From Vicinamibacteria bacterium (GTDB lineage Bacteria > Acidobacteriota > Vicinamibacteria > Fen-336): a stretch of 64,000 nucleotides of DNA. The number at the start of each line of letters is the position of its first letter. Positions within the stretch are counted from its first letter, which is position 1. This document shows, piece by piece, positions 1 through 35,692 of the stretch. The stretch lies in the NCBI GenBank assembly GCA_023701125.1, contig JAMPXO010000009.1, positions 5,264 to 69,263 of the forward strand. Direction: 5' to 3'. The position numbers were made by a program, and so were the translations under genes. The notes under the pieces are model-generated. The model saw only the letters and a list, made by a program, of their open reading frames with translations, was not told where the DNA came from and did not search any database.

Positions 1-1109
1 ACCATCTCGGGCGCATCCTCGCGGTTGGTCAGGTCGTCGGTCGCCAGCAGCGCATCGGCGGCAGGCAGGCCGTTGCGGCCGATGATGTTGTAGTGGTCGA
101 GCTGGAACGTGCCCGTGAAGGTGTCGTTCGGGCTCGGCTGCCAGGTCAGCTTGCTGTTGAAGCGCGGCGACACCTCGTTCAGCCGGGTGATCGCGCTGGC
201 CGGGTCCTGGTCGCGCTCGAAGCGCTGCACGGACAGGAAGTAGAACAGCTCGTCCTTCACCAGCGGGCCCGAGACCTGGCCCGTGAAGTCGAGCAGCTTG
301 TTGAGCTTGGGCGACGCCGCCAGCGACGGGTTCTGGGCGATCTGCGCAGGCGTCACGTTGTCGGTCGCGAGGCTGTCCTCGCTGTAGATGACGTCGAACA
401 GGCCGCCCATGCGGTTGCCGCCCGAGCGGGTGACGGTGTTGACGACCGCACCGGTGAACGAGCCGAACTCGGCGGGTGCGCCGATGCCGCTGACCTGCAC
501 CTCCTCGACGATGTTGAAGTTGAAGAAGGTCCAGGCCGAGCCGCCCTCCGGGTCGCGGGTGTCGACGCCGTCGAGCAGCAGCGCGTTGCCCGTGTCGCCG
601 TCACCGCCGAAGGCCGAGCCGCCGTTGATGCCGGGCAGGAAGTTCATCAGGCCGACCGCCGCATTGGTCGGGCGCACGGGCAGGTTGAACAGCAGGTCCT
701 GGCCGAGCTTCTGGTCGCTCGACGAGCTGCTGGTGTCGACCACCGGCGCCTCGCCGGTGACGGTGATCGTCTCGGCCATCTGGCCGACGCCGAGCACGAA
801 GTCGATCTCCGAGGTCTTGCCGATCGAGACCGGGATCGCCGTGCGACCCTTCGGCGTGAAGCCCGACAGCTCGGCCCGGACCTCGTAGCTGCCCGGGTCG
901 AGGCCGACGAAGCGGTAGGCGCCGGAGCCGTCCGTCGTGGCCTGGCGGCTGCCGGTCTTGCTGACCAGCACGACGGTGGCGCCGGGCAGCGCTCCGCCCT
1001 GCTCGTCCCTCACCAGGCCCGCGATCGATCCGGTCAGCGACTGGGCCAGTCCGGGCCAGGCCGCCGCCAGGATCGCGAGCGCCGCGAGGTATGTCCTCAT
1101 CTTGCGCAT
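1..1109 (-). CDS. TonB-dependent receptor-like outer membrane protein (partial, C-terminus beyond window); signal peptide, carboxypeptidase-regulatory-like domain and plug region
   Basis: Hand translation of the minus strand gives MRKMRTYLAALAILAAAWPGLAQS signal peptide, then SGAYRFVGLDPGSYEV (CarbopepD_reg-like) and ETITVTGEAPVVDT plug-like motifs. Not in the ORF track because it runs off the window edge. The + ORF 93..1181 is its antisense artefact. Confidence 0.7.
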   Translation of the reverse strand, partial: MRKMRTYLAALAILAAAWPGLAQSLTGSIAGLVRDEQGGALPGATVVLVSKTGSRQATTDGSGAYRFVGLDPGSYEVRAELSGFTPKGRTAIPVSIGKTSEIDFVLGVGQMAETITVTGEAPVVDTSSSSSDQKLGQDLLFNLPVRPTNAAVGLMNFLPGINGGSAFGGDGDTGNALLLDGVDTRDPEGGSAWTFFNFNIVEEVQVSGIGAPAEFGSFTGAVVNTVTRSGGNRMGGLFDVIYSEDSLATDNVTPAQIAQNPSLAASPKLNKLLDFTGQVSGPLVKDELFYFLSVQRFERDQDPASAITRLNEVSPRFNSKLTWQPSPNDTFTGTFQLDHYNIIGRNGLPAADALLATDDLTNREDAPEM

Positions 1110-1126
1110 GGGCTCTCCTTCTCTCC

Positions 1127-1459
1127 TCAGTTGCGAATCGGCGACTTGACGCGGTCGTTGTCAGCCGAGTACACGGTGTAGCCGGCGGCCGCGACCAGCA
1201 GGGTCAGCACGGCCACGCCCTTGCCGGACTTGAAGAAGCCCTTCTCCGTGCCGCTGGCCTGGGCCTGGGCCGGCGCCAGCGCGGCGGCGGGCAGCGCCGC
1301 GGCGGCCTTCACGCCCGCGGCGTGGGCCAGGGTCGGGGTTGCGGTTGCGGTTACGGCGACGGGCTCGGGGGCGGGCTCCGCAGCCAGGGCCCGGCTCGGC
1401 CCGACCACGGCGGCGAGCGCCAGCGCGCCCACGACGGCGGATCGCAATGACTTGCGCAT
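1127..1459 (-). CDS. small secreted or membrane-anchored hypothetical protein (about 110 aa)
   Basis: Internal ATG at 1459 is preceded by GGAGGA. N-terminal signal peptide MRKSLRSAVVGALALAAVVGPSRALA. C-terminal hydrophobic helix. Ala/Pro-rich low-complexity middle. Confidence 0.45.
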   Translation of the reverse strand: MRKSLRSAVVGALALAAVVGPSRALAAEPAPEPVAVTATATPTLAHAAGVKAAAALPAAALAPAQAQASGTEKGFFKSGKGVAVLTLLVAAAGYTVYSADNDRVKSPIRN

Positions 1460-1504
1460 TCGTCCTCCAGGACTCTGAACAGACGGCTTGAAAACAGGCA
1501 CGGC

Positions 1505-1978
1505 CTACGACTCCTCGGCCTCCGCGACCGCGACCAGCGCGTCCTGGGCGAGCGGGCGCTTCATCACGTACAGGCCCCACTGGTACAGCGCGCCGACCAC
1601 CGGCTTGAGCGACTCGCCGACGGGCGTCAGCGAGTAGCCGGTGCTTCGGCCCGCCTCGAAGCGCACCTCGCGCCGGACCAGCCCGAGGCGCTCCATCTCG
1701 GCCAGCTCGCGCCGCAGCGTCTTCTTGCTGATGCCGGCCGTCAGCCGCATCAGCTCGCAGAACGGCCGCGCGCCCCAGAACAGGTGCCAGACGATCAGCG
1801 GCTTGTAGCGACCCTCGAGCACGTCGAGCGCGACCTCGACGGGCGTGCGGCCCGCCGCGGCCGGAGCCTCGGCGCGGGGCGACGCGGATGCCGGCCGGCG
1901 CACGGGCGGCACGGCGGCCAGCACGGGCGGGACCCGGGGTGTCGGGTACGGGGGGCGCAGCGCGAATGCAGTCGCCAT
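1505..1978 (-). CDS. HxlR-family winged-helix transcriptional regulator
   Basis: CELMRLTAGISKKTLRRELAEMERLGLVRR HTH typical of HxlR/MarR-like. Start re-set to the internal ATG (MATAFAL). Confidence 0.7.
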   Translation of the reverse strand: MATAFALRPPYPTPRVPPVLAAVPPVRRPASASPRAEAPAAAGRTPVEVALDVLEGRYKPLIVWHLFWGARPFCELMRLTAGISKKTLRRELAEMERLGLVRREVRFEAGRSTGYSLTPVGESLKPVVGALYQWGLYVMKRPLAQDALVAVAEAEES

Positions 1979-2159
1979 CGTCTCTCCTCCGGTTCGCGGT
2001 TCAGCGGTGAACCCACGCTGCGCAACGCAGAGCTCCGCCACCATGAGAGCGGAGTGATCGCGGGATGAGCCGGACCTGAGGCCGGAACCCGCTCGAGGGA
2101 GAAGAGTTAGAAGGGAGGGGCTGGCGCCCCTTCACGTCTTGCTACAACTGCGACGGGGG

Positions 2160-2327
2160 TTCGGGGGCGGAGGAGCGTCCGTCCGCGACGGAGCCCCCGA
2201 GGGCCCGAGCGCCGGGCTCTGCCCGGCCCGAGCCGCCCGATCATCGTTCGGGGGCGGAGGAGCGTCCGTCCGCGACGGAGCCCCCGAGGGCCCGAGCGCC
2301 GGGCTCTGCCCGGCCCGAGCCGCCCGA
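2160..2327. repeat. tandem pair of 81-bp repeat units (period 87 bp), a diverged member of the dispersed REP-like family
   Basis: Units 2160-2240 and 2247-2327 are near-identical (GGGGGCGGAGGAGCGTCCGTCCGCGACGGAGCCCCCGAGGGCCC...). They share the GGGGGCGGAGGAG...GCCCCC core with the other loci. Confidence 0.8.
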
Positions 2328-3731
2328 CGGGTGCTCGAAGTAGTTCAAGCCGCTGGCTTCGCTCGCCCGGCGCAGCATCGACTCCGAGATCGCGTTCGCC
2401 TCGCTGACCAGCGCGCCGACGTCGAGGCCGCGGATCTCGCCGCCTTCGACCCGCACACAGCCGTTGACGATCGCCAGGTCCACGGGCGACGGCCAGGGAG
2501 AGAAGACGAGCGCCGCCAGCGGATCGGAGGACGCGCCGGCGTACGACAGCCGGCGGGTGTCGATGGCGATCAGGTCCGCAGCCTTGCCCGGCTCGAGGCT
2601 GCCGATGTCGTCGCGGCCGAGGCAGCGGGCGCCTCCGCGGGTCGCCATCCACAGCACCTCGCGGGCCGTCACCCACTTCGCCGTGTCCTCGACCAGCCGG
2701 TGGGCCAGCAGTGCCTGGCGCAGTTCGGCCAGCATGTTGGACGCGTCGTTGGAAGCCGAGCCGTCGACGCCGAGGCCGACCGGCACCCCCGCCTGGATCA
2801 TCTTCTTGACCGGCGCGATGCCGGAGCCGAGCCGGAAGTTCGAGGACGGGCAGTGGGCGACGCCCGTGCCGGTCTCGGCGAACAGCACGATCTCCTCGTC
2901 GTTCAGGTGCACGCAGTGAGCCAGCCACACGTCGTCGCCGAGCCAGCCCAGCCGGCGCAGGAACTCGACCGGGCGGCAGCCGTAGACCTCTGCGCAGTAG
3001 ACCTCTTCGTCCCGGGTCTCGGCCATGTGGGTGTGCAGCCGCACGCCGTGCTCGCGGGCCATGTCGAGGGTGCGCCTCATCAGGTCCTCGGAGACCGAGA
3101 ACGGCGCGCACGGCGCCAGCGCGATCCGCGTCATCGCCCGCGGCTTGGGGTCGTGGTGCTCGCGGATCAGCCGCAGGCAGTCGGCGAGGATCGTTTCCTC
3201 GTCCTGGCAGACGTCATCGGGCGGCAAGCCGCCCTGGCTCTGGCCGCGGCTCATCGAGCCGCGCGTCGGCTGGAAGCGCATGCCGACCTCGCGCGCCGCC
3301 TCGATCTCGACGTCGATGAAGCGCTCCTGGCCGCGCGGGAACAGGTAGAGGTGATCGGTCGTCGTCGTGCAGCCGGTCAGCAGCAACTCGGCCCAGCCCA
3401 CCCGCGCCGCGGCCCGCACCGCCTTCTGGTCCCAGTAGCGCCAGACCTGGTACAGCTCGGTCAGCCAGCGGAACAGCGGCGCCTCCTGCACCCGCGGCAC
3501 GTTGCGGGTCAGGATCTGCGGCACGTGGTGGTGGGTGTTGACGAAGCCGGGCAGCAGCACGCGGCCGCGCAGGTCGATCACGCGCGCGCCCGCCAGCCGG
3601 TCGGGCGGCGGCTCGCCTTCGCCCAGCGCCGTGATCGCGTCGCCGTCGACGCGGACCCAGGCGTCCTTCAGCACGCGTTGTGCGTCGTCCATCGTGGCGC
3701 ACAGCAGGGCGTTGCGCAGCAGCAGGCTCAT
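2241..3731 (-). CDS. amidohydrolase superfamily protein, 8-oxoguanine deaminase / guanine-deaminase-like
   Basis: LPGFVNTHHHVPQ metal-binding motif, HTHMAETRDE, GVDGSASND. 496 aa. The last roughly 29 codons are encoded by repeat unit B and the stop lies in the inter-unit spacer. Confidence 0.7.
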   Translation of the reverse strand: MSLLLRNALLCATMDDAQRVLKDAWVRVDGDAITALGEGEPPPDRLAGARVIDLRGRVLLPGFVNTHHHVPQILTRNVPRVQEAPLFRWLTELYQVWRYWDQKAVRAAARVGWAELLLTGCTTTTDHLYLFPRGQERFIDVEIEAAREVGMRFQPTRGSMSRGQSQGGLPPDDVCQDEETILADCLRLIREHHDPKPRAMTRIALAPCAPFSVSEDLMRRTLDMAREHGVRLHTHMAETRDEEVYCAEVYGCRPVEFLRRLGWLGDDVWLAHCVHLNDEEIVLFAETGTGVAHCPSSNFRLGSGIAPVKKMIQAGVPVGLGVDGSASNDASNMLAELRQALLAHRLVEDTAKWVTAREVLWMATRGGARCLGRDDIGSLEPGKAADLIAIDTRRLSYAGASSDPLAALVFSPWPSPVDLAIVNGCVRVEGGEIRGLDVGALVSEANAISESMLRRASEASGLNYFEHPSGGSGRAEPGARALGGSVADGRSSAPER

Positions 3732-3769
3732 CGATCGCTCCAGTGGGGGCGGCGCCCCGGCATCGGCCC

Positions 3770-4570
3770 CTAGCGGCCCTCGAACTTCGGGGCCCGTTTC
3801 TCCACGTGGGCCGCGAGGCCCTCGCGGGCGTCGGCCGAGAGGAACAACTGCTGCTGCAGCTCGCGTTCGAGGGCAAGGCCCTCCGCGAAGCTCGCCTCGC
3901 CGCCGCTGATCACGGCGCGCTTGATCAGGCCGATCGCCTTCGACGAGCGCTTCGGCGGGATCAGCTCGCGCACCCGCTCGTGGACGGCGGCCAGGAACGC
4001 ATCCGCGCTCCCGGCCTCGATCACGTCGTGGACGAGACCGGCCTCGCGGGCCGCGTCGAAGTCCATCAGCCGGCCGTGGGCCATCAGCTCGAACGCGCGG
4101 GCGCGGCCGAGCAGCCGCACCAGGCGCTGGGTGCCGCCGGTGCCGGGCAGCACGCCGAGGGCCACCTCGGGCAGCCCCAGCTTGCCGGCGCCGCGGCGCG
4201 CGATCCGCAGGTCGGCGGCGAGGGCCACCTCGAAGCCGCCGCCGACGGTGTGGCCGTTGAGCGCTGCCACCACCAGCTTGGGCGTCTGCTCCAGCCGCTG
4301 CAGGGTCTCGTTGGCGTGCAGGCAGAACGCGTACTTGAAGCCGGGCGTCGCCTTCTGGAGCATCTTGATGTCGGCGCCCGCGCAGAAGAACTTCTCGCCG
4401 GCCCCGCGCAGCACGATCGCGTGCACCGAGTCGTCCATGCGCGCATCGAGGATCGCCGCGTCCAGGGCCCGCAGCATGTCGTACGAGTAGGTGTTGGCCG
4501 GCGCGTCGTCGAGGGTCAGGGTGAAGATGCCGTCGGCCGTCTGGTCGCGGCGGATGAGGTTGTCGTTCAT
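3770..4570 (-). CDS. enoyl-CoA hydratase/isomerase (crotonase family)
   Basis: FCAGADIK oxyanion-hole motif, GGGFEVALAADLRIA. Start set at MNDNLIRR (ATG 4570). Confidence 0.8.
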   Translation of the reverse strand: MNDNLIRRDQTADGIFTLTLDDAPANTYSYDMLRALDAAILDARMDDSVHAIVLRGAGEKFFCAGADIKMLQKATPGFKYAFCLHANETLQRLEQTPKLVVAALNGHTVGGGFEVALAADLRIARRGAGKLGLPEVALGVLPGTGGTQRLVRLLGRARAFELMAHGRLMDFDAAREAGLVHDVIEAGSADAFLAAVHERVRELIPPKRSSKAIGLIKRAVISGGEASFAEGLALERELQQQLFLSADAREGLAAHVEKRAPKFEGR

Positions 4571-4626
4571 GGTTCGTTTCGATTCTAGCCTCGCGCTAGG
4601 ATCGGGAACTTCGCGGAGGGTTCGAC

Positions 4627-6270
4627 ATGCGCAAGCCGCCGCCAGCCGACGCGCCGCCCCCGGTGTCCACTGCCGGCTCGCTCTCGATCCGCCTCGGCTG
4701 CCCCAAGTGCGGCGCACCGGAGTCGATCGACGACGAGACCGTCAGCCTGCGCTGCGACCACTGCGGCTCGCTGCTGGTCGTCGCGGCCCCCGACCGCACC
4801 GAGGTCTACCTCGCGGAAGGCACGGTCGCCGAGCCCGCGGCGCTGCTGGAGACGCTGATCGAGTACCGCGTGCGGGCCCACCGCGCGGAAGTGATCCACC
4901 GTTACAAGGACAAGGACGGCAACCCGCCCCCGGAGATCTTCATCGCCGCCCAGCTCGCCCGCTTCGAGTCGAAGCTCCGCGAGCGCGCGCGGATGGTCGA
5001 GGCCCACCGCTTCTTCGTGCCCTACTGGCACGTCTCCGGGAAGATCGTGCAGGCCGTGCTCGGCCGCCGTGGCGACGGTCCCAAGTTGACCCGGGTGCGG
5101 GCCTTCGCGGTGGAGCACACCGTGCCCGGCTACGACGTCGCCCGCGCCAACCTGCGCGACAAGGGGCTGCGGCTCGCCCGCTCGCGAGTGAGGCCGCTGC
5201 TGGCCCAGGACGTCGCCGACCTGAAGGCGTTCGTCGAGGACGCGCCGCTCGCCGAGAGCTCGTGGCGCGAGATCGACCGCTACCGCGGGCGCGATCTCGA
5301 GCGCGGCATCGAATCCGTCGCGAAGAGCGGCCAGTTCCTGTTCCAGCACCGCGTGCTCGTCTATCGGCCCTACTGGGTGGCGCTCGCCGAGGCCGACAAG
5401 GGGCCGGAGTGGGTGCTGTTCGACGGCGGCTTCGGCACCGTCGCGGGCTATCCCGACGCGGCCGAGGCGCGCGCGCTGCGGCAGCAGGCCCGCCACGACC
5501 CGCTGGGCGCGGGCGAGGCCGCGTACCGCCGGATCGTCGTCGCCGCCTCGCGCTGTCCCGACTGCGGCCACGAGCAGGCCTTCGACCCGCGCGACCACGT
5601 TTCCGTGTGCCCCAACTGCCACCTCGCGCTGGAGCCGCGGCCCGCGGGCATCGCGGTCACCGGCTACGACCACGTCGTGCCGCAGACCGGGGCTTCGCTC
5701 GACGCCACGTACGTGCCCGTGTGGAGCTTCCCGTTCGAGCTGCGGATCGGCAAGGCCGCGCCGATCACCACTCTGCCCGCGTGGGGCCAGGCCGTGATCG
5801 CCGGTGGCCTGCCCGCGCCTGCCGCGCTGGCGGGCGACCGCCTCCACGTACCGGCGCTGCGGCTGCTCGGCACGGAGCCGGGCGACGAGGTGTTCAAGGC
5901 GATGGCCGAGTGGCTGCACCGCGACCCGCCGCGGGTGGCCGACGGCAAGCTGCCGCTCGGTGGCCGGCCGCGCTTCGTCGGTGCCGCGTTGTCCGAGGCC
6001 GAAGCCCGCGAGTTGGGCCCGTTCGTGCTGCTGGGCGCCTGCGGCAAGGCGGCGGCGGCCCGCCTCAATGCGATGGGCCTGAAGCGCGCGCTGTTCGACG
6101 CGGCGCTGAGCCTGGGCCCCGGCCGTCTCTTGATGCTGCCGTTCGCTCGCAACGCGGAGGGCGACCTCGCGGCCGGCGGCAACGCGGTTCGCGTCCCACG
6201 CCTGCTGCTCGAAGGCGGCGAAGCGCTGGAGCAGATGCGGGCGACGGTCTGGAGCGAGGCCGCGAAGTAG
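4627..6270 (+). CDS. hypothetical protein with two Cys4 zinc-ribbon motifs
   Basis: CPKCG..CDHCG and CPDCG..CPNCH pairs. Coherent codon bias. No recognisable catalytic domain. Confidence 0.6.
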   Translation: MRKPPPADAPPPVSTAGSLSIRLGCPKCGAPESIDDETVSLRCDHCGSLLVVAAPDRTEVYLAEGTVAEPAALLETLIEYRVRAHRAEVIHRYKDKDGNPPPEIFIAAQLARFESKLRERARMVEAHRFFVPYWHVSGKIVQAVLGRRGDGPKLTRVRAFAVEHTVPGYDVARANLRDKGLRLARSRVRPLLAQDVADLKAFVEDAPLAESSWREIDRYRGRDLERGIESVAKSGQFLFQHRVLVYRPYWVALAEADKGPEWVLFDGGFGTVAGYPDAAEARALRQQARHDPLGAGEAAYRRIVVAASRCPDCGHEQAFDPRDHVSVCPNCHLALEPRPAGIAVTGYDHVVPQTGASLDATYVPVWSFPFELRIGKAAPITTLPAWGQAVIAGGLPAPAALAGDRLHVPALRLLGTEPGDEVFKAMAEWLHRDPPRVADGKLPLGGRPRFVGAALSEAEARELGPFVLLGACGKAAAARLNAMGLKRALFDAALSLGPGRLLMLPFARNAEGDLAAGGNAVRVPRLLLEGGEALEQMRATVWSEAAK

Positions 6271-6291: not shown

Positions 6292-7242
6292 CTAGCGAAG
6301 TTCCTTGACCGTCGAGCCGCCCTGGACGCGAGCGGTGAACGACTCGCCGACCGCGAGCTGCTGCCAGCGCTCGCAGCCGAGGTCGGAGCGGTAGGTGCGG
6401 CTGGCGCCCTTCAGCACCGCGATGCACTCTTCCTTGCGCGCGCCCTCGCGCTCGTTCCGGTCCAGGTCGAGCTGCGGCCAGTAGCGTTCTTCGCCGCCCG
6501 GGCCGTCGGCCTTCTCGGTGCGCACCGTGACCCAGCGCTCGACCTCCCACGCCGCGCGCGTGTCCTTCACCTCGCGCTCGTCGTAGACGGGCTGGTCCTC
6601 GTAGACGTCCTCGAAGAAGCCGTTGCCCTTGTCGCGGACGCCGGTCTTGACCCGCTCGGTGCCGACCTGCACGCGCTCGGTCGAGCGTACCGCCTGCCAG
6701 CGGTTCAGGACCCGGGCGCCGCTCGGGCGCTCGTCGAGCCAGCCCTCCTCGCGCACCGTCTGCAGCGCCTCGACGTCGATGCTGCGCGACCACTCGAGGT
6801 TCTCGACGGTGACGGGCTCGTCGCTCTCGCGGAATGCGAAGTAACCGAGGCCGGCGCAGAACGCCAGGCCGAGCAGCAGCAGCCCGACGACCCACTTGAA
6901 GCAGCCCGAGGATGAAGCGGCCGGCGCCGGCATCGCGGGCACCGGGCCTGCCAGCGGGATCTCCTTCACCTCGCGGGCGCGCGCCTGCTCCCGTTCGGCG
7001 CCGCACTGCTTGCACTTCTTCTCGAGCGCCGGGTTGGAGGTGGAGCAGTACTCGCAGAGCCACTCCGCGCCCGCCTCGGCCCGGCGCAGCAGCTCGGCGT
7101 CGGTGACCTCCGCCGCGTCCTCCTCGAGGAAGAACGTGACGTTCTCGTCGCGGGTCGCCCCGCAGCCCAGGCACGCGAGCTGGGAGCCGCGCTCGACCCG
7201 CCCGCAGTTCGTGCAACGCCACTTGCCTTCCCGAATCGCCAT
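6292..7242 (-). CDS. membrane protein with N-terminal double zinc ribbon and a periplasmic charged domain
   Basis: WRCTNCG..CLGCG and CEYCS..CKQCG ribbons, one TM helix (WVVGLLLLGLAFCAGLGYFAF), Glu/Arg-rich C-terminal domain. Confidence 0.6.
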   Translation of the reverse strand: MAIREGKWRCTNCGRVERGSQLACLGCGATRDENVTFFLEEDAAEVTDAELLRRAEAGAEWLCEYCSTSNPALEKKCKQCGAEREQARAREVKEIPLAGPVPAMPAPAASSSGCFKWVVGLLLLGLAFCAGLGYFAFRESDEPVTVENLEWSRSIDVEALQTVREEGWLDERPSGARVLNRWQAVRSTERVQVGTERVKTGVRDKGNGFFEDVYEDQPVYDEREVKDTRAAWEVERWVTVRTEKADGPGGEERYWPQLDLDRNEREGARKEECIAVLKGASRTYRSDLGCERWQQLAVGESFTARVQGGSTVKELR

Positions 7243-7292
7243 ACCGGGGGCGAACGCTACGAGCGGAACGGCCGCGGGTCAAGGCGCCGGCC

Positions 7293-7544
7293 TCAGGCGG
7301 GGCCGGGCTCCAACAGCGCTCGCAACGTGGCCTCGTCGACGCGGTGGCGGGCGAGTTCGTGCCCGTCCCGCATCAGCACGGGGATCTCGAAGATGTAGCG
7401 CCGCTCGAGCTCGGGGTCGTCGGCCACGTCGACCTCCTGCAGCGGCAGCCCCAGCGGACCCGCGACAGCGAGCACGACGGCGCGCATCTCGTCGCAGAGG
7501 TGGCAGCCGGGTCGGCCCACCAGCACGAGCGGGCTCCGGCTCAC
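7293..7544 (-). CDS. glutaredoxin-like protein (DUF836/YruB-type thioredoxin fold)
   Basis: PGCHLCDEM active-site-like CxxC near the N-terminus. 83 aa. Confidence 0.6.
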   Translation of the reverse strand: MSRSPLVLVGRPGCHLCDEMRAVVLAVAGPLGLPLQEVDVADDPELERRYIFEIPVLMRDGHELARHRVDEATLRALLEPGPA

Positions 7545-7725
7545 GACCGCGCCGTCGCCCCAGCCGCGGCCCGGGGCAGGATCCTGGCGCGGACGGGCGA
7601 GAGGATGAAGGGGCTCGCGGCGCGCGGCGCGCCCCCAGGGGCCGAAGCGGTCGCAGCCATGGAGCGATCAGGTTAACAACGCGCGGCCGCGGCGGGCAAG
7701 GCGATCCCCCGACCGAGCGGCTAGA

Positions 7726-9483
7726 ATGCGCCCTTCGATGGCCTGGGGAGTGCAAACCGCGCTCGCCGCCCTGCCGGTGCAGCCGGCGGCGGCGCTCCGA
7801 AGATCGTGGGCCGAAGGCTACGGAGCGCCCCAACTCAAGGCCGACGCGATGGCCGGCGCCGTGGTCGGTATCGTGGCGCTGCCGCTGTCGATGGCGCTGG
7901 CGATCGCCTCCGGCGTCGCCCCCCAGCACGGGCTCTACACCGCGATCGTGTCCGGCTTCCTGATCGCGCTGCTCGGCGGCTCGCGGGTCCAGGTCTCGGG
8001 CCCGACCGCGGCCTTCGTCGTGATCCTGGCCCCGATCGCCACCCGCCACGGCCTCGGCGGCCTGCTGGTGGCCACCGTGCTCGCCGGCCTGATGCTGATG
8101 GCGATGGGCCTCGCCCGCTTCGGCAAGCTGATCGAGTTCGTGCCGTACCCCGTCACCACCGGCTTCACTGCCGGCATCGCAGTCGTGATCGCGACCCTGC
8201 AGGTGCGCGATTTCCTGGGCCTCGACGTGGCGAAGATGCCCGAGCACTTCCCCGAGCGGGTCGCAGCCCTGTTCCACGCGCTGCCGACCGCCCACCTCTC
8301 GGACGTCGTGATCGGCGGGCTGACGCTGGCCATCCTGCTGCTGTGGCCGCAGGCCTTCCGCCAGGTGCCGGCGCCGCTGGTCGCGCTGCCGCTGGCGATC
8401 GTCGCCGCCGCGCTGATCCAGAAGCTGATCCCCGGCATGCACGCGGCGACCATCGCCGACCGATTCGCCTACGACGCCGGCGGCGGCCTGATGGCGCCCG
8501 GCATCCCGCGCCTGCCGCCGCTGCCCGGCCTGCCGTGGAACTTCCCCGGCGGCGACGGCGCGCCGCTCGGCCTCGACTTCGCGCTGATCCGCGACCTCGC
8601 CCCGTCCGCGTTCGCGATCGCGATGCTGGGCGCGATCGAGTCGCTGCTCTCGGCGGTCGTGGCGGACGGCATGACCGGCCACAAGCACGACCCCGACGCC
8701 GAGCTGTTCGCCCAGGGCGTGGGCAACCTGGTCGGCCCGTTCCTGGGCGGCTTCGCGGCCACGGGCGCGATCGCGCGCACCGCGACCAACATCCGCTCCG
8801 GTGCGAAGACCCCCGTCGCCGCCATGATCCACGCGCTGATCGTGCTGGCGGCGGTCGTGCTGCTGGCCCCGCTGCTCGGCATGCTGCCGATGGCCGCGCT
8901 CGCCGCGCTGCTGTTTGTGGTGGCGTGGAACATGAGCGAGGCCAAGCACTTCGGCCACACGCTGCGGGCCGCGCCGCGGGCCGACGTGATCGTGCTGCTG
9001 CTCTGCTTCGGGCTGACCGTGGTCTTCGACATGGTGGTCTCGGTGACGGTCGGCGTGCTGCTCGCCTCGCTGCTGTTCATGAAGCGGATGGCCGAGGTCA
9101 GCGGCGTGCGACTGGTCGAGCCCGACGAGCACCCGCGCGGCGAGCCGCTGCCGCGCGGCGTGCTGCTGTACGAGGTGGCCGGCCCACTGTTCTTCGGCGC
9201 GGCGCAGAAGGCGATGAGCGCGCTGGAGACCGTCAACCCCGGCGTGCGGGTGGTGCTGCTCGACCTGCGCGCCGTGCCGGCGATGGACGCCACCGCGATG
9301 GTCAACCTGGAGTCCGCGTTCGAGCGCCTGCACCGCCACGAGGTGCTGATCGTGCTCGGCGGCGTGCAGCCGCAGCCGCTGCGGGCGATGGCCCGCGCCG
9401 GCTGGAGCGGCCGCAAGGGCCGGCTGCTGATCTACCGCTCGTGGGACAAGGCGGTCGCCGAGGTGCGGCAGGCTTTCGGATGA
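7726..9483 (+). CDS. SulP-family anion (sulfate/bicarbonate) transporter with C-terminal STAS domain
   Basis: Polytopic membrane N-terminus typical of SulP (GLYTAIVSGF..GGSRVQVSGPTAAFVV). C-terminal STAS-like region (VVLLDLRAVPAMDATA). Confidence 0.85.
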   Translation: MRPSMAWGVQTALAALPVQPAAALRRSWAEGYGAPQLKADAMAGAVVGIVALPLSMALAIASGVAPQHGLYTAIVSGFLIALLGGSRVQVSGPTAAFVVILAPIATRHGLGGLLVATVLAGLMLMAMGLARFGKLIEFVPYPVTTGFTAGIAVVIATLQVRDFLGLDVAKMPEHFPERVAALFHALPTAHLSDVVIGGLTLAILLLWPQAFRQVPAPLVALPLAIVAAALIQKLIPGMHAATIADRFAYDAGGGLMAPGIPRLPPLPGLPWNFPGGDGAPLGLDFALIRDLAPSAFAIAMLGAIESLLSAVVADGMTGHKHDPDAELFAQGVGNLVGPFLGGFAATGAIARTATNIRSGAKTPVAAMIHALIVLAAVVLLAPLLGMLPMAALAALLFVVAWNMSEAKHFGHTLRAAPRADVIVLLLCFGLTVVFDMVVSVTVGVLLASLLFMKRMAEVSGVRLVEPDEHPRGEPLPRGVLLYEVAGPLFFGAAQKAMSALETVNPGVRVVLLDLRAVPAMDATAMVNLESAFERLHRHEVLIVLGGVQPQPLRAMARAGWSGRKGRLLIYRSWDKAVAEVRQAFG

Positions 9484-9617
9484 GCGTCCCGCTCCCGCGC
9501 CGCGGCTTCCTGGCCAGCCAGCTCGCGGCTACGCGTGGGAGTCGCGGCTCGATTTCTCGTTCCGGCTGACCGAGATCACGCCCCCGCGCTGACGCCCCGC
9601 GCTACCATCGGCGGCCA

Positions 9618-10628
9618 ATGAGCGAACCCTTCGCCGCCTGGCCCAAGACCGAAGTCCACCTCCACCTCGAGGGCACCGTGTCGCCCGAGACGCTGTGGGA
9701 CCTGGCGACGCGCAACGGTGTCCCACTTCCGGCTGCGTCGCTCGCGGAGCTGAAGGCCCACTACGCGTTCGACGGCTTCGACCGCTTCCTCACGCTGTGG
9801 CTCGCGATGTGCCGCTCGTTGCGTCAGCCGCGCGACTACGAGGAGATGGTCGACGGCTACCTCGCCGAGTGCCGGCGCCAGAACGTGCGCTACGTCGAGG
9901 CCCACTTCACGCCCTACAACCACGAGCGCTTCGGCTTCGGCGGCCGCCGCGCGCTGGACATCGTCTGCGACCGGCTGCGCGCGGCCGAGGCCGCGGGTGG
10001 CCCGGTCACCCGGCTGATCCTCGACATCCCCAGCGAGTCGGTGCCCGAGAGCGGCCCGTACACGATCGAGTTGCTCGAGCAGATCGCCGAGCCGCTGGTG
10101 GTCGCGATCGGCCTCGGCGGCCCCGAGGAGGGCTTCCCGCGGGCGCTGGTCGCCCCGTTCTTCGAGCGCGCGCGGGCGGCCGGCTACCCGTGCGTCGCCC
10201 ACGCGGGCGAGACGGCCGGCGCGTCGTTCGTGCGCGAGGTGGTCGAGCTGCTGAAGGTCCGCCGCGTGCAGCACGGCATCCGCGCGCTGGAAGACCCGGC
10301 GCTGGTGCAGGTGCTGGCCGAGCGCGAGATCTGCTGCGACGTGGCGCTGACCTCGAACTCGCTGCTGACCATCCACCGCGAGATCGCCGCCCACCCGTTG
10401 CCCGCGCTGCTCGCGGCGGGCGTGCCCTGCACGCTGTCCACCGACGACCCGCCGTTCTTCGGCACCGACCTCGACCGCGAGTACGAGCTGGCCCACCACG
10501 TGCTCGGCCTCGACCCCGCCACGCTGTGGCAGCTCAACCTCAACGGCCTCCGCTTCGGCCTCGCCGACGTAGCACTGCGCCGCCGCCTGCTCCTCGAGTT
10601 CGCGGCCTGGCGCCAGGAGAACCCGTGA
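9618..10628 (+). CDS. add: adenosine deaminase
   Basis: EVHLHLEG, AHAGE, STDDP zinc and catalytic motifs. Confidence 0.85.
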   Translation: MSEPFAAWPKTEVHLHLEGTVSPETLWDLATRNGVPLPAASLAELKAHYAFDGFDRFLTLWLAMCRSLRQPRDYEEMVDGYLAECRRQNVRYVEAHFTPYNHERFGFGGRRALDIVCDRLRAAEAAGGPVTRLILDIPSESVPESGPYTIELLEQIAEPLVVAIGLGGPEEGFPRALVAPFFERARAAGYPCVAHAGETAGASFVREVVELLKVRRVQHGIRALEDPALVQVLAEREICCDVALTSNSLLTIHREIAAHPLPALLAAGVPCTLSTDDPPFFGTDLDREYELAHHVLGLDPATLWQLNLNGLRFGLADVALRRRLLLEFAAWRQENP

Positions 10629-23290: not shown

Positions 23291-23366
23291 CGCGACCCCG
23301 GAGGCCGCCGCCGCCCACGCGTTGCGGCGGGCGTGGTCGCGCAGCAGCGCCCCCCAGCCCACCGTC

Positions 23367-23447
23367 GGGTTCCGATGTCGGGCAGAGCCCGCCATCGGTC
23401 CCATGGGGGCTACGTCGCGAACGGAGCTCCTCCGCCCCCAAGCCCCG
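23367..23447. repeat. single 81-bp copy of the dispersed REP-like element (reverse orientation)
   Basis: GGGTTCCGATGTCGGGCAGAGCCCGCCATCGGTCCCATGGGGGCTACGTCGCGAACGGAGCTCCTCCGCCCCCAAGCCCCG is near-identical to the 31.4 kb and 56.5 kb copies. Confidence 0.85.
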
Positions 23448-23481: not shown

Positions 23482-24390
23482 CTACCGCTTCTTCTTCGCG
23501 GCCTTGCCGCCGCCCTCGGCCTCGAGCAACGCGCGGGCCTCGGCGAAACCACGCCGCTGCTCTTCGCCCACCCTGGGGAAGTGCAGGTCGAGGCCCTCGA
23601 GTGTGTCGACGACAGCACGCGCGACCGCCAGCCGCGTGAACCACTTGTTGTCCGCGGGGATCACGTACCAGGGCGCGTCCTTCGTCGCAGTGCGGCGGAT
23701 GGCGTCCTCGTAGGCCGCCTGGTACTCGTCCCAGTGGCCGCGCTCGCGCACGTCGCCCGCCGAAAACTTCCAGTTCTTCTCCGGCTCGTCGAGCCGGGAC
23801 AGGAAGCGCCGCTTCTGCTCCGCCTTCGACACGTGCAGGAAGAACTTGACGATCTTCACGCCGTTGCGGGACAGGTAGCGCTCGTGGGCGGCGATGTCCT
23901 CGCAGCGCTGTTCCCAGATGCGCTTCGTCACCAGCTCCTCCGGCAGGTGCTGGCCCTTCAGGTACTCGGGGTGGACGCGGACGACCAGTACCTCCTCGTA
24001 GTACGAGCGGTTGAAGATGCCGATCCGCCCGCGCTCCGGCAGGCAGCGCGCGGTGCGCCACAGGAAGTCGTGGTCGAGCTCCTCGGGCGAGGGCGACTTG
24101 AACGAGAAGACCTGCACGCCCTGCGGGTTGACGCCGGACATCACGTGCTCAACCGCGCCGTCCTTGCCCGCCGCGTCCATCGCCTGGAACACGAGCAGCA
24201 CGGCCCAGCGGTCCTGGGCGTAGAGCTTCTCCTGCAGCGCAGCCAGTTGCTCGACACCCGCGGCCAACGACTCCCTGGCCTTGTCCTTGCTCTTGAGCCC
24301 GCCGGTGTCGCCGGGGTCGATGTCACGCAGCCGGAAGCGGCGACCGTCGGTGATGCGGTACGGGGCGGCGAAGTCCTTGTCCTGCGGCAT
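23482..24390 (-). CDS. polyphosphate kinase 2 (PPK2) family phosphotransferase
   Basis: Walker-A-like FQAMDAAGKDG, lid region. Start re-set to MPQDKDF, preceded by GGAGGGAG. Confidence 0.85.
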   Translation of the reverse strand: MPQDKDFAAPYRITDGRRFRLRDIDPGDTGGLKSKDKARESLAAGVEQLAALQEKLYAQDRWAVLLVFQAMDAAGKDGAVEHVMSGVNPQGVQVFSFKSPSPEELDHDFLWRTARCLPERGRIGIFNRSYYEEVLVVRVHPEYLKGQHLPEELVTKRIWEQRCEDIAAHERYLSRNGVKIVKFFLHVSKAEQKRRFLSRLDEPEKNWKFSAGDVRERGHWDEYQAAYEDAIRRTATKDAPWYVIPADNKWFTRLAVARAVVDTLEGLDLHFPRVGEEQRRGFAEARALLEAEGGGKAAKKKR

Positions 24391-31385: not shown

Positions 31386-31390
31386 CCTCC

Positions 31391-31575
31391 CGGCGCCGGA
31401 ACCCACCGGGGGTTTGGGGGCGGAGGAGTTCCGTTTGCGACGTAGCCCCCATGGGACCGGCGCCGGGTTCATCCCGGCGTCGGAACCCACCGGGGGTTTG
31501 GGGGCGGAGGAGTTCCGTTTGCGACGTAGCCCCCATGGGACCGGCGCCGGGTTCATCCCGGCGTCGGAACCCGAC
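31391..31575. repeat. tandem pair (plus a partial) of 84-bp REP-like units
   Basis: GGAACCCACCGGGGGTTTGGGGGCGGAGGAGTTCCGTTTGCGACGTAGCCCCCATGGGACCGGCGCCGGGTTCATCCCGGCGTC occurs twice head-to-tail. It has internal palindromes CCCATGGG and CGCCGGG-ttcat-CCCGGCG. Confidence 0.9.
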
Positions 31576-31635: not shown

Positions 31636-32871
31636 ATGAGAACCCGCACCGTGGCCTTCACCCTCGCGAGCCTGCTGCTGCCGGCCGCGGCATCCGCAGC
31701 GGAGGCGCCCGACGTGCTCGACCAGATCCTGCGCGGGCGGCCGGAGCTCGCCACCGTGCTGCAGCAGGCCGAGCGGCACCGGCTGCAGATCCTCTACACC
31801 CAGATCGACCGCGACGCGGCCAACAAGCCGACCTTCCGCTCGTACGGCTACCGGCTCGACGACCCGCGCTACTTCTACCCCGCGAGCACGGTGAAGCTGC
31901 CCGCCGCAGTGCTGGCGCTCGAGAAGCTGCACGACCTGAAGGTCCCGGGCCTGACCCGCGACACGCCGCTGCGGATCGAGGCCGGCACGCCGCGCCAGAC
32001 GGCCGTCGACCGCGACGAGAGCAAGGCCGACGGCCTGCCGACGATCGCCCACTTCGTGAAGAAGATCTTCCTGGTCAGCGACAACGACGCCTTCAATCGG
32101 CTGTTCGAGTTCCTCGGCCAGCGCGGGCTCAACGAGCGATTGTGGGAGCTTGGCCACCAGGACGCCCGCATCCTGCGCCGACTGGAGGCCGGGATGGACG
32201 ACGCGGAGAACCGCGTCACCAACCCGTTCGTGTTCTTCCAGGGGCCGAAGGAGATCCACCGCCAGCCGCTCGCCCGCAACGACGCGGAGTGGACGATCGA
32301 CAGGCCCGACGTGCGCCAGGGTCGCGGCTACATCAAGGACGGCGCGCTGGTCGAGCAGCCGATGGACTTCAGCCGTTCCAACTTCCTGTCGCTGAAGACG
32401 CTGCAGGACGTGCTCAAGGCCGTCGTGTTCCCCGAGGCGATGCCGCAGGAGAAGCGCCTCCGGTTGAGCGAGGACGACCGCCGCTTCCTGCTGCGCGCGA
32501 TGTCGACGCTGCCCCGCGAGAGCACCGAGCCCGCCTACCCGAACCGCGACGAGTTCCCCGACGCGTACGTGAAGTACTTCCTGTACGCCGGCTCGAAGCA
32601 GCCGATCCCCGCCAACATCCGCATCTACAACAAGGTGGGCCAGGCCTACGGCTACCTGCTCGACGACGCCTACGTGGTCGACTTCGACAACGGCGTCGAG
32701 TTCCTGCTGACCGCGGTGCTGCAGGTCAACGACGACCAGGTCTACAACGACGACAAGTACGAGTACGACACCGTCGGCTTCCCGTTCCTGGCCCAGCTCG
32801 GCCGCGCGGTGTACGAGCACGAGCTGAAGCGCCCCCGCCCCCGCCGCCCGGACCTGTCCCACCTGCGTTGA
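31636..32871 (+). CDS. class-A beta-lactamase-like serine hydrolase (secreted)
   Basis: Signal peptide. STVK (SxxK), SDN, and a K-V-G (KTG-like) motif. GGAGGA RBS. The track ORF start at 31270 is an artefact of translating through the repeats. Confidence 0.7.
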   Translation: MRTRTVAFTLASLLLPAAASAAEAPDVLDQILRGRPELATVLQQAERHRLQILYTQIDRDAANKPTFRSYGYRLDDPRYFYPASTVKLPAAVLALEKLHDLKVPGLTRDTPLRIEAGTPRQTAVDRDESKADGLPTIAHFVKKIFLVSDNDAFNRLFEFLGQRGLNERLWELGHQDARILRRLEAGMDDAENRVTNPFVFFQGPKEIHRQPLARNDAEWTIDRPDVRQGRGYIKDGALVEQPMDFSRSNFLSLKTLQDVLKAVVFPEAMPQEKRLRLSEDDRRFLLRAMSTLPRESTEPAYPNRDEFPDAYVKYFLYAGSKQPIPANIRIYNKVGQAYGYLLDDAYVVDFDNGVEFLLTAVLQVNDDQVYNDDKYEYDTVGFPFLAQLGRAVYEHELKRPRPRRPDLSHLR

Positions 32872-32896
32872 GGCTTGTGCCGGGCGCCCGCCCGCC

Positions 32897-32980
32897 GACG
32901 GGGTTTGGGGGTGGAGGCCCTCCGTTCGGGCCGGAGCCCCCATGGGACCGGCGACGGGTTCATCCCGGCGCCGGAACCCA
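32897..32980. repeat. single diverged copy of the REP-like element
   Basis: GGGGTTTGGGGGTGGAGGCCCTCCGTTCGGGCCGGAGCCCCCATGGGACCGGCGACGGGTTCATCCCGGCGCCGGAACCC. Confidence 0.85.
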
Positions 32981-32997
32981 TCCCGATGCGACGACGC

Positions 32998-33417
32998 TCA
33001 GCGCCAGAGCTTCACGCCGGCGCGGCGGGCGGCCTCGCGCAGCGGACCGTCCTTGCAGGCGAGCTCCAGCCTTCGCCGCTGCGCCAGCTCGAGATAGGCC
33101 GCGTCGTAGACGGAGATCTCGTGCGTCATCGCCAACTCGGCCAGCCGCGAGAAGGCCAGCGCGGCCATCTCGTGGTCCACGCGAAGCGCGAGGCCGCCCA
33201 GCCAGCCGAGTGCCTGCTGCCGCTCCTCGGCGGTGAGCTTCTTCCTGCGGACCAGCACCGTCAGCGCGTTCGCGACCTCCAACGGCCACAGCGCCGGCAC
33301 CTCGACGGCCGCACCTTGGACCAGGGCGTCGAGCATCGACTCGGTCGCCGACGTCGCCTGTCCCGGATGTACCCAGGCCACGGCGACTGATGCGTCTGCC
33401 ACGAAGGCGGGTTTCAA
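32998..33417 (-). CDS. vapC: PIN-domain toxin VapC
   Basis: PIN fold: acidic residues (FVADASV ... YDAAYLELA). 139 aa. Confidence 0.8.
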   Translation of the reverse strand: MKPAFVADASVAVAWVHPGQATSATESMLDALVQGAAVEVPALWPLEVANALTVLVRRKKLTAEERQQALGWLGGLALRVDHEMAALAFSRLAELAMTHEISVYDAAYLELAQRRRLELACKDGPLREAARRAGVKLWR

Positions 33418-33671
33418 GCGCGCCCGTCGTCGATGGCCGCCCGGACCTCGCGGTCACTGAGGCCGGCCTTGCTCCGCCGCCGGATCTGCTGCTGCAAGCC
33501 ACGCAGGCCAGCGACGGCGCGACCCACCGCCTCCAGCCGTTGGCCTCCCTCCGGGATCACGCGAGCGACGGGCTTGTCGTGGCGGGTGATGACGATCTCC
33601 TCGCCGCGGGCCACCCGGCCCAGCAGCGCGCCGAAGTGGGTCTTGGCCTCCAGGGCCGTCACTCTGGCCAC
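33414..33671 (-). CDS. vapB: Phd/YefM-type antitoxin VapB
   Basis: 85 aa. GTG start with GGGAGGGAA RBS. ATGA overlap with vapC. TGATCA-N5-TGATCA inverted boxes in its promoter. Confidence 0.8.
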   Translation of the reverse strand: MARVTALEAKTHFGALLGRVARGEEIVITRHDKPVARVIPEGGQRLEAVGRAVAGLRGLQQQIRRRSKAGLSDREVRAAIDDGRA

Positions 33672-33747
33672 AAATTCCCTCCCGTTCGATATTGATCAGT
33701 CGATGATCATTCTAGCCGGTCGCGAGGTCCGGTAAGCTCGCGGCTCC

Positions 33748-35430: not shown

Positions 35431-35438
35431 CTGCCCGT

Positions 35439-35522
35439 CGGTTCCGTCGCCGGGGGAACCCGGCGCCGGTCCCATGGGGCCTACGTCGCCAACGGCGGCT
35501 CCTCCGCCCCAAACCCCCGTCG
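35439..35522. repeat. single copy of the REP-like element (reverse orientation)
   Basis: CGGGGGAACCCGGCGCCGGTCCCATGGGGCCTACGTCGCCAACGGCGGCTCCTCCGCCCCAAACCCCCG, starting 9 bp after the cstA stop. Confidence 0.85.
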
Positions 35523-35692
35523 AAGTTCGCGAAACCGGGCTCCTCATGGGCGCCTCATCGACGGCTCGGCAACAACATTCAATTTTCACGAAACCCCCGC
35601 GTCGCTGCCGGCGTCTTACTCGGCAGTCCAGCACATTCGACGCGGGCGCCCGAGGGGGGCTTCGGAGCGGCCTGCGAGGAGCACAGCACGCG

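Follow-up and report, generated by a model that had tools for sequence, protein, structure and literature searches.

Rickettsia palindromic elements (RPEs) are short, hairpin-forming dispersed repeats that lie in-frame within unrelated genes, adding a conserved peptide to their products while leaving the reading frame unbroken (PMC10969869). Here we describe a repeat family detected in a 64,000-nt window (i.e., the whole stretch of DNA that was analysed, part of a contig of a MAG), where its sites include the 3′ end of a gene for 8-oxoguanine deaminase. The family resembles RPEs in having in-frame copies in a kinase, a hydrolase, a sortilin-like protein, a HIT-PLD protein, and the tail of the deaminase, but differs in its host (Acidobacteriota, 72.6% G+C), in its unit length (about 77–87 nt versus about 100–150 nt for RPEs), in that many copies are intergenic, located at gene ends and in direct tandem arrays, and in that the deaminase case is a C-terminal extension rather than an internal insert. 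By its behaviour the repeat may be likened to RPEs; because the host is an acidobacterium, membership in the RPE sequence family is not claimed here.

Bacterial MITEs with copies in genes or at gene ends (e.g., ERIC/RU-1-3 of enterobacteria, Correia, and the Coxiella QMITE) are characterized as small, non-coding, multi-copy, and insertion-polymorphic elements that have complementary termini and are bordered by direct repeats; some copies fuse to ORFs and give new termini (PMC2759123, PMC3184786, PMC5896051, PMC10969869). Our family is likewise short, multi-copy, non-coding, polymorphic at orthologous sites, and flanked by direct repeats, but its terminal inverted repeats extend over only 6–11 nt and are weak, its flanks are always CGACGG-like and variable in length, and no parent IS is assigned. 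Mycobacterial MIRUs are 40–100 bp units that form short head-to-tail arrays near gene ends, are frame-compatible, and vary in copy number among strains. The family shares with them a scattering of short arrays, oriented head-to-tail and close to the ends of genes, but belongs to another lineage and sequence, with single copies common, some copies intragenic, and both orientations represented. REP/BIME and REPIN-RAYT systems have in common with it the G+C-rich palindromes at gene 3′ ends and, in subtype A, the GTAG by the stem (compare PMC3733652). Its unit, however, is 2–4 times longer (77–87 nt versus a 20–40-nt palindrome) and contains two hairpins, its arrays are direct rather than inverted doublets, and GTAG, present in subtype A only, becomes GGAG in subtype B, so membership as defined by a GTAG/CGTC-headed palindrome was rejected. 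Integron attC sites were rejected as well, as GTTTGGG/GTTCGGG and GGAACCC do not fit the RYYYAAC ... GTTRRRY cores, and an attC cassette array was ruled out by the loci being ordinary chromosomal genes in mixed orientation; a CRISPR-like reading was ruled out on anatomy. The repeat family is previously undescribed, though of an RPE/MITE-like kind that is already known.

A repeat dimer at the 3′ end of a deaminase gene

The product MCM2254675.1 scored 632.9 bits against the NCBIfam NF006055 8-oxoguanine deaminase equivalog (exceeding its cut-off of 532), with residues 2–455 aligned to profile positions 5–453 of 455, and also contained Pfam Amidohydro_1 (E = 9.5e-64). Following Pro468 (codon at 2328–2330), a Gly/Ser/Ala/Arg-rich tail of 28 residues starts exactly at the boundary of a tandem repeat (Table 1). 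The two repeat units are 82 nt each and separated by a 5-nt spacer (start-to-start distance 87 nt, TRF score 338), and a 42-nt piece of the unit has a chance expectation of 0 in the window. The first-pass annotation had described a minus-strand ORF that crosses unit B and ends with a TGA located between the two units, which the coordinates bear out, as they do its two tandem units with a period of 87; its sizes of 81 and 6 nt for unit and spacer, on the other hand, needed correction. That the repeat supplies the tail also stands, but the stop codon, attributed in its heading to the repeat element, comes from the junction rather than from the unit itself; this junction contributes the TGA (2241–2243, read on the minus strand) along with two bases of the final codon, and the tail has 28 rather than about 29 residues. 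This junction departs from the usual one of the family (TCATC versus CGGGG), and with 82 of 87 positions repeated, the array is not an exact 87-nt tandem duplication.

Table 1 Features of the deaminase locus and further repeat copies in the window
Feature	Position	Strand	Remarks
HxlR-family regulator gene	1505–1978	-	Downstream of deaminase; start set by ortholog comparison
Left flanking direct repeat CGACGGG	2151–2157	+	7-mer recurs 174 nt (2 x 87) further on, at 2325–2331
Repeat unit A, subtype B	2159–2240	+	3′ of deaminase stop, outside deaminase translation; 100% identical to unit B
5-nt junction between units	2241–2245	.	TCATC on plus, GATGA on minus strand; non-canonical
8-oxoguanine deaminase gene	2241–3731	-	496 aa; NCBI MCM2254675.1
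New C-terminal tail SGGSGRAEPGARALGGSVADGRSSAPER	2244–2327	-	Codons 469–496; absent from 10/12 close orthologs
Repeat unit B	2246–2327	+	Deaminase ORF reads its antisense strand
Right flanking direct repeat CGACGGG	2325–2331	+	Overlaps Pro468 and Ser469 codons (CCG TCG on minus strand)
Single subtype-A copy	23362–23444	-	83-nt insert incl. one CGACGG; codon 9–10 of Zip transporter gene, start codon cut off
2.2-unit subtype-A tandem array	31388–31572	+	Period 84, 99% identical; begins 2 nt past stop codon; syntenic L016 without array
Single subtype-A copy	32900–32981	+	Between convergent genes; one edge of 2.7-kb block missing from L016
Single subtype-A copy	35440–35523	-	10 nt past CstA stop; other edge of 2.7-kb block, inverted relative to 32.9k copy
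2.1-unit subtype-A tandem array	56521–56698	-	Period 85, 100% identical; convergent genes; 5 nt past DinB-family stop

Our data suggest that a short, structured, non-autonomous mobile repeat very probably replaced the deaminase stop codon and thereby yielded the 28-residue tail. Mechanistically, a direct dimer of the 82-nt unit ("subtype B", 87 nt) would have taken the place of the stop codon, and, since the frame in which the unit is read has no stop, translation would continue past Pro468 through antisense unit B to the TGA in the atypical junction. The tail is presumably translated. In an AF2 model whose overall quality was mediocre, it had a pLDDT of about 27–32 and no secondary structure, consistent with a tail that is probably disordered, and this disorder, together with the C-terminal position, may explain why it is tolerated.

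The 169-nt array is known from the assembly, and either the dimer or the whole insertion could in principle be an artefact of MAG assembly, with the real gene ending at Pro468. The window is part of a MAG contig, short reads are poorly suited to assembling exact 82-nt tandem copies, and the exact dimer junction had no match in JGI metagenome contigs. Such an artefact is nevertheless very unlikely, as L026, assembled independently from a different sample, contains both the left junction (CACCCG followed by TCGGGCGG) and the right flank (CAGT followed by TGTAGC), two further arrays in the window show the two-unit architecture, contigs crossing the junctions require junction k-mers in the reads, and the 496-aa product appears in the NCBI annotation. 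A metagenome search with the general subtype-B dimer junction returned two chance matches only; by eye, these lie in a putative seryl-tRNA synthetase gene.

Deaminase alleles with and without the repeat

The 90%-identity cluster of the window deaminase comprised 12 members, 10 of which (at least 94% identity) were 468 aa long and ended in ...DYF(S/T/Q/E)(H/R)P followed by the stop. At the position where the window has the repeat, P0247 (99% identical protein, 96.5–98% DNA identity) reads CAC CCC TGA, and P0251 (97% identical, 481 aa) has a 13-aa tail and a 33-nt repeat remnant with the same left junction as the window. Outgroups at 94–95% identity and the wider deaminase family (72–77% identity) end directly after residue 467–468, and blastn homology of the window to L001 ends at 2329, the edge of the repeat. 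The earlier statement that typical family members lack the tail is thus confirmed, with the amendment that members of this deaminase subfamily have 467–468 aa rather than about 450. The ancestral stop, which an ortholog alignment had been expected to reveal, follows ...HP/RP in near-identical repeat-free alleles. No repeat-free ortholog shares the tail, which the first-pass annotation had named as the finding that would count against its proposal; the only other extended allele carries the repeat remnant. Its proposal of a mobile repeat inserted at the deaminase 3′ end, creating a neo-C-terminus, is supported, the element being multi-copy and insertion-polymorphic.

The insertion at the deaminase is derived and polymorphic. 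It is extremely improbable that the tail is instead ancestral in the lineage, with the 468-aa forms representing losses and the repeat-like DNA an old part of the gene. Within the small clade, loss in L024 is indeed most parsimonious (L024 empty, the more distant L026 filled), but the outgroups and the wider family argue against an ancestral tail, as does the tail DNA being a copy of a dispersed repeat that other genomes and unrelated loci also carry, and the insertion is derived for the gene even if L024 lost the element.

The allele history of this locus is not one clean insertion. The closest relative, L024, is empty and the more distant L026 (93% DNA identity) has the element with both junctions, so that secondary loss, repeated gain, or recombination is needed. 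Compared to the empty allele, CTGA (4 bases including the stop) is replaced by 182 nt with no clean duplication, and the deaminase-HxlR intergenic gap is 262 nt in the window versus 168 nt. A simple target-duplication model fails here because the CGACGGG flanks predict ...HPSQL followed by a stop, whereas the sequence actually present in the empty allele is CAC CCC TGA TGT AGC. Overall, three deaminase alleles (no tail, 13-aa tail, and 28-aa tail) coexist among genomes at 93–98% DNA identity. The locus appears to offer a snapshot of selfish DNA reshaping a protein terminus in natural populations.

Distribution of the repeat family

Nine units of about 82–93 nt were identified at six loci in the window (nhmmer, E-values 1e-15 to 1e-27). 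Across the family the unit is about 77–87 nt (87 nt in subtype B), and copies are single or in head-to-tail arrays with units identical within a locus; a heterodimer in L004 consists of subtype B then subtype A. Most copies are a few nt from gene ends, and some are within coding sequence. Among the MAGs in which an exact-pattern scan detected the family core were ACD1 and ACD2, both from Vicinamibacteria; the viral contigs and plasmids searched contained no copies.

Presence/absence was observed at four window loci, namely the deaminase 3′ end, the PPK2-Zip junction, the 31k array, and the 32.9k/35k copies: syntenic stretches of 21–26 kb (L001 and L016–L021) contain no copy, and the window has those at 2.2k, 23k, 31k, 32.9k, and 35k. 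The ACD2 genome (L017) has no 23k copy, yet carries the family at other loci. At 23k, the Zip N-terminus MATGTASTTVGWG, for which the ortholog has MATGTAGATVGWG, reappears once 83 nt with one CGACGG among them are deleted. The 2.7-kb block bounded by the 32.9k and 35k copies contains PIN, Phd/YefM, and CstA genes and no transposase, which rules out a mobilising gene within this two-copy block. With its empty and filled sites, the family may serve as a tractable set for studying how such elements move.

Conserved hairpins and a possible RNA function

Each unit contains two hairpins, a conserved structure supported by covariation: 84% of cells were paired versus 38–50% with partners slid, compensatory changes occurred in 11 pairs versus 0–3 in the slid controls, and none of 500 shuffles matched the observed values. 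Several copies folded with z-scores of about −3.2 to −3.7; the subtype-B unit from the window (z about −1) and the dimer folded as mRNA (z = −0.75) showed no advantage over shuffled sequences. The unit ends are complementary over 6–11 nt (GGGTTY ... GGAACCC; in subtype B GGGGGTTCGGG ... CCCGAGCCGCCC), and, since these terminal columns never vary, covariation is uninformative on this complementarity.

Such conservation might indicate that the repeat serves mainly as a functional RNA or regulatory element under selection (e.g., a 3′-end stabiliser, a terminator, or a small RNA), with the deaminase read-through being incidental and not a trace of selfish mobile DNA. Consistent with this, none of the six window loci lies more than about 35 nt from the end of a gene, five of the six are co-oriented with the gene ending just upstream, G-U pairs are commoner on the GGGGGCGGAGGAG strand (11 versus 5 A-C cells, which equal G-U on the opposite strand), and outgroups have a covarying hairpin just past the deaminase stop whose place the repeat takes in the window. 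We nevertheless consider this explanation unlikely, because copies occur in both orientations and in coding sequences, break genes (the Zip start and a ResIII helicase), and are missing from orthologous sites of close relatives, and because a transposase or recombinase recognising folded DNA predicts hairpin conservation equally. Rfam, searched over the whole window, gave no match at the gathering threshold; sub-threshold matches to sRNA and eukaryotic miRNA models at laxer settings were taken as chance.

Flanking repeats and mode of spread

(C)CCGACGG-type direct repeats of 6–9 nt or more flank the copies, reading CGACGG at 23k and GCCCGACGG or GCCCGTCGG in subtype B, with a spacing of 87 nt in the four subtype-B copies outside the window. 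All flanks are similar to a single motif and their length varies, which is a poor fit to a classical target duplication of fixed length. We infer that the family spreads through transposition or a related copying process.

A specific form of the latter, in which copies stem from multi-round copying of a unit template (rolling-circle or template-switch) with no classical TIR transposase, would leave terminal redundancy and identical multimers, unlike TIR/TSD transposition. The arrays of 2.1–2.2 units, which are 99–100% identical within a locus and differ between loci, are consistent with it, as are the partial extra 3′ ends (6 to 22 nt) at the 5′ side of many single copies (L015, L009, L005, 31k, and 56k), the rare variant GCCCGTCGG in both flanking repeats of L014, and the varying length of the direct repeats. 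Still, a concatemer would not yield the non-canonical junction of the deaminase dimer, the L004 heterodimer does not fit, slippage between the direct repeats at the flanks is an equally good account of the identical tandem units, and no replication or transposition protein is assigned to the family, all of which make this form of copying quite improbable.

In-frame copies within other genes

Subtype-B copies in other MAGs were 87 nt long (29 codons) and stop-free, with one shared antisense frame, and are therefore carried as in-frame peptide inserts. The antisense frame encodes SGGSRQAQPGARALGGSVANGRSSAPEPP within the activation loop of a Ser/Thr kinase (L002) and TGGSRQAEPDARALGGSVANGRSSAPDPP within an LCAT-like hydrolase (L014), such that frame and peptide are common to the kinase, the hydrolase, and the tail of the window deaminase. 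A phmmer search with the 29-aa module against 1.84 billion representatives gave no matches, and a doubled-module profile gave 991 word-sharing candidates with none at E <= 0.001, both searches having low sensitivity for such a short, low-complexity query.

One could envisage an acidobacterial counterpart of RPEs, namely a 29-codon stop-free module frame-locked by its insertion motif and spread by unit copying. The motif CCG-NCG-GGC (antisense) would lock the module into one reading frame, and the same flexible peptide would therefore be added repeatedly to unrelated proteins; we regard this scenario as a doubtful one that probably does not apply. Selfish DNA in protein-coding genes, best known from Rickettsia, in any case seems to extend to free-living, high-G+C soil Acidobacteria. 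The repeat inflates ORFs, makes low-complexity inserts (in kinases and hydrolases), and once removes a start codon, giving annotators reason to recognise it. The intragenic copies that persist are stop-free, and sense-frame copies were found inside a sortilin/BNR protein (L013) and a HIT-PLD-ResIII protein (L006).

Repeat DNA at the end of the deaminase gene

The minus-strand ORF at 2241–3731 encodes a 496-aa protein that matched the NCBIfam 8-oxoguanine deaminase equivalog over residues 2–455 with 632.9 bits (cut-off 532 bits) and also hit Pfam Amidohydro_1. NCBI lists it as MCM2254675.1, with the annotation 8-oxoguanine deaminase, on a 70,285-bp contig of a Vicinamibacteria MAG. Two 82-nt repeat units (A, 2159–2240; B, 2246–2327) lie at its 3′ end, 100% identical and set at a period of 87 by the 5-nt spacer TCATC (plus strand) between them; the chance expectation for a 42-nt piece of this unit is 0. 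The first-pass annotation had the ORF reading through unit B and stopping in the spacer, with a period of 87, all of which stands, whereas its sizes of 81 and 6 nt are corrected to 82 and 5 nt. The gene strand reads ...TTC GAG CAC CCG / TCG GGC GGC ... GAA CGA TGA, and since the frame entered from CAC CCG meets no stop within the repeat unit, translation would run on past Pro468. Read from the sequence, a junction of the family's canonical form (gene strand, CCCCG) would let the ORF cross unit A to a TAG at 2142–2144 and carry a 61-aa tail; the atypical junction GATGA gives an in-frame TGA after 28 tail residues. AlphaFold2 assigned residues 467–496 a pLDDT of about 27–32 and zero secondary structure, in a model built on a shallow alignment and mediocre overall (mean pLDDT 64.8), which is consistent with the predicted tail being a disordered appendage.

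The GATGA dimer junction was not found elsewhere in junction pattern scans of metagenome contigs, and exact tandem duplication, which would repeat all 87 positions and not 82, was rejected as its source. GATGA also makes a stop and a start codon overlap (ATGA). From that ATG, a frame of 45 codons (2107–2244, minus strand; MIGRLGPGRARRSGPRG...) crosses unit A and ends at TAA 2107–2109; its status as a gene has no support.

Features of the deaminase locus, the repeat family and genes carrying repeat copies (coordinates without a prefix are those of the window)
Feature	Location	Strand	Remark
Pro468 codon	2328–2330	-	repeat begins at the very next codon
Tail, residues 469–496		-	SGGSGRAEPGARALGGSVADGRSSAPER; antisense reading of unit B
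Deaminase stop TGA	2241–2243	-	inside the 5-nt junction between units
Empty allele	L024, L025	gene strand	CACCC/CTGA/TGTAGCAAGACG
Remnant allele	L026	gene strand	CACCC/G TCGGGCGGCTCGCGCCCGGCAGAGCCCGGCGCT CAGT/TGTAGCAAGACG
Window allele	window	gene strand	CACCC/G [82] GATGA [82] CCCCGTCGCAGT/TGTAGCAAGACG
Family locus	2151–2327		two units, profile match
Family locus	23364–23446	-	single unit, profile match; in Zip codon 9–10, next to PPK2
Family locus	31400–31575		two-unit array, period 84, 2.2 copies, profile match
Family locus	32900–32981	+	single unit, profile match
Family locus	35440–35523	-	single unit, profile match
Family locus	56521–56698		two-unit array, period 85, 2.1 copies, profile match
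PPK2	23482–24390		
Zip	22460–about 23340		
Ser/Thr kinase copy	L002:2772–2863	ORF +	ORF 994–5064; subtype B, antisense, in-frame
LCAT-like hydrolase copy	L014:3680–3769	ORF +	ORF 2284–4488; subtype B, antisense, in-frame
Sortilin/BNR-repeat protein copy	L013:2909–2997	ORF +	ORF 1954–5415; subtype A without TAG, sense-frame
HIT-PLD-ResIII protein, region with copies	L006:6191–7365	ORF -	ORF 6332–7795; includes a sense-frame copy in the linker

Deaminase alleles and the origin of the tail

Homologs at 72–77% identity were 454–486 aa long (mostly 467), and in an aligned sample of them the C-terminus fell at or near the Pro468 position. The 90%-identity cluster holding the window protein (n = 12) contained ten members of 468 aa ending in ...DYF(S/T/Q/E)(H/R)P; its ortholog P0247 has 468 aa and is 99% identical to the window protein, and P0251 (481 aa, 97% identical) ends in ...HPSGGSRPAEPGAQL. 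The earlier statement that the family lacks the tail therefore holds, with 28 residues in place of about 29 and the homolog lengths above in place of about 450 aa.

At the DNA level, the cluster carried three alleles of the locus (see table). In outgroups at 94–95% identity (contigs L001 and L027–L030), the gene ends in CAC CC(C/G) TAG, followed by a variable 47–62-nt spacer with a hairpin (ctccag...ctggag) and then a conserved TGTCAGAAGACG block, and blastn homology between L001, the closest long syntenic contig, and the window ends at 2329. Together, the short orthologs, the empty and remnant alleles and this homology break indicate that the tail arose recently, in this lineage, from repeat DNA. 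The first-pass proposal of a recently inserted mobile repeat creating a new C-terminus is thus borne out by the ten 468-aa orthologs and the repeat-free empty alleles, and the comparison with repeat-free orthologs that it suggested placed the ancestral stop directly after residue 468 (L024, L025 and the outgroups' TAG).

By DNA identity, the tree was ((window, L024), L026). The element and both flanks are common to the window and L026, L024 is empty, and one deletion from the dimer cannot produce the L024 allele, in which the stop within CTGA and the TAG of the outgroups fall at one codon position. TGAT occurs both in the stop region of L024 and at the dimer junction, from which we conjecture that an original TGA of the clade may survive as the window stop, trapped between two units.

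Compensatory stem changes were seen in the outgroups' post-stop hairpin (L001:11408–11450, L027:2908–2970, L030:1555–1615), with stems ctccagc-ggg-ctggag, ctccag-gccg-ctggag and ccagcg-cgctgg. The window, L024 and L026 lack this hairpin, which is probably the native deaminase terminator. L001 also carries extra genes (1866–5741 and 9243–9976, against window 7284–7588 and 3755–3761) for a TPR protein, a beta-lactamase-family protein, DUF4287 and a second enoyl-CoA hydratase, and their absence from the window points to rapid gene-content turnover in the deaminase neighbourhood.

Repeat family and its structure

A profile built from three arrays found nine units at six window loci. Tandem units were 99–100% identical within a locus and different between loci, the 31k and 56k arrays included. 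The arrays at 31388–31572 and 56521–56698 begin 2–5 nt past stop codons, with a partial first unit in both. Among the matches listed from a scan for the exact pattern, covering one genome per species, the family core occurred in the Vicinamibacteria/Acidobacteria MAGs ACD1 and ACD2 and on a single contig of a MAG labelled Armatimonadetes (L004, JACPDV010000033.1) and of one labelled Actinomycetota (L015, JBQTIP010000202.1); the family may span phyla, or these two may be binning errors holding Vicinamibacteria DNA. The viral contigs and plasmids scanned held zero copies, the repeat had no Rfam family match in the window, and a literature search turned up no publication about repeats from this class; the family appears undescribed.

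An alignment of 21 units (A3) showed a near-invariant core, GGGGGCGGAGGAG-N-CCGTTCGCGACG(T/G)AGCCCCC, followed by a variable hairpin. Subtype A ends (3′) in ...CGGAACCC(GACGG) and subtype B, the form at the deaminase, in ...GAGCCGCCCGACGG; L004 has a B-A heterodimer, joined by the canonical junction CGACGGGGG. Covariation in these sequences supported a two-hairpin structure: 84% of cells were paired versus 38–50% with partners slid by 1–3 columns, compensatory changes affected 11 pairs versus 0–3 in the slid controls, and 0 of 500 shuffles matched the observed values. The pair beside the GGGGGC/GCCCCC stem is T-A in some units and C-G in others. Several units, on either strand, folded better than shuffles (z about -3.2 to -3.7), and the window subtype-B unit folded no better (z about -1).

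In-frame repeats inside genes have been described for Rickettsia palindromic elements (RPEs) and some intragenic MITEs (PMC10969869), a residence that the Vicinamibacteria repeat shares. Small repeats fused in-frame to genes are a known mechanism class, comprising RPEs, intragenic ERIC/RU elements and Coxiella MITEs, from which the present repeat differs in host, size, constrained flanking motif and direct arrays. By analogy, it would work like an RPE or MITE, a likeness of behaviour and not membership of a named family.

Evidence of mobility

No copy was present in syntenic L001 (about 82–91% DNA identity) or L016–L021 (about 80–87%), and the window copies at 2.2k, 23k, 31.4k, 32.9k and 35.4k lie within stretches that are empty in these relatives. 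ACD2 lacks the 23k copy (L017) and has the family at other loci. The 23k site is the cleanest empty/filled pair: the stop codon of PPK2 and the start codon of Zip overlap in relatives (TGATG), and the window has an 83-nt insert at 23362–23444 on the minus strand, in Zip codon 9–10 with CGACGG on both sides, removal of which together with one CGACGG restores MATGTASTTVGWG (ortholog, MATGTAGATVGWG). An in-frame TAG within the insert cuts off the original Zip start codon, so the window Zip must start downstream, possibly at the GTG directly after the insert. Subtype-B copies are flanked by 9-nt repeats, GCCCGACGG, at a spacing of 87 nt; in L014 both read GCCCGTCGG. Several copies begin, on the 5′ side, with a longer partial 3′ end.

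A 2.7-kb block (32871–35578) encoding a PIN toxin, a Phd/YefM antitoxin and a CstA carbon-starvation protein is absent from syntenic L016 and edged by the inverted 32.9k (+) and 35.4k (-) copies, 5′ ends outward, an arrangement that may resemble a composite transposon or be coincidental.

In-frame copies in other genes

Subtype B has no stops in most frames, and most subtype-A units have a TAG in one sense frame. Loci touching coding sequence made up 4 of 5 for subtype B versus about 3 of 13 for subtype A, a small sample in which the higher frequency for subtype B is suggestive only. Unexpectedly, ACD2 carried subtype B antisense, in the deaminase-tail frame, within two long ORFs. The kinase (L002) reads ...DFGLAKAFSADPMAT[SGGSRQAQPGARALGGSVANGRSSAPEPP]AGSHD...GTAAYMSPEQ; Pfam gave its kinase domain as two stretches, and its activation loop has about 45 extra residues relative to PknA (4OW8). 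The hydrolase (L014) reads ...GVDP[TGGSRQAEPDARALGGSVANGRSSAPDPP]TGPVTW.... Sense-frame copies lie in a sortilin/BNR-repeat protein and in a HIT-PLD-ResIII protein; in the latter, the helicase part seems to be interrupted by another two copies, and the gene may be decaying.
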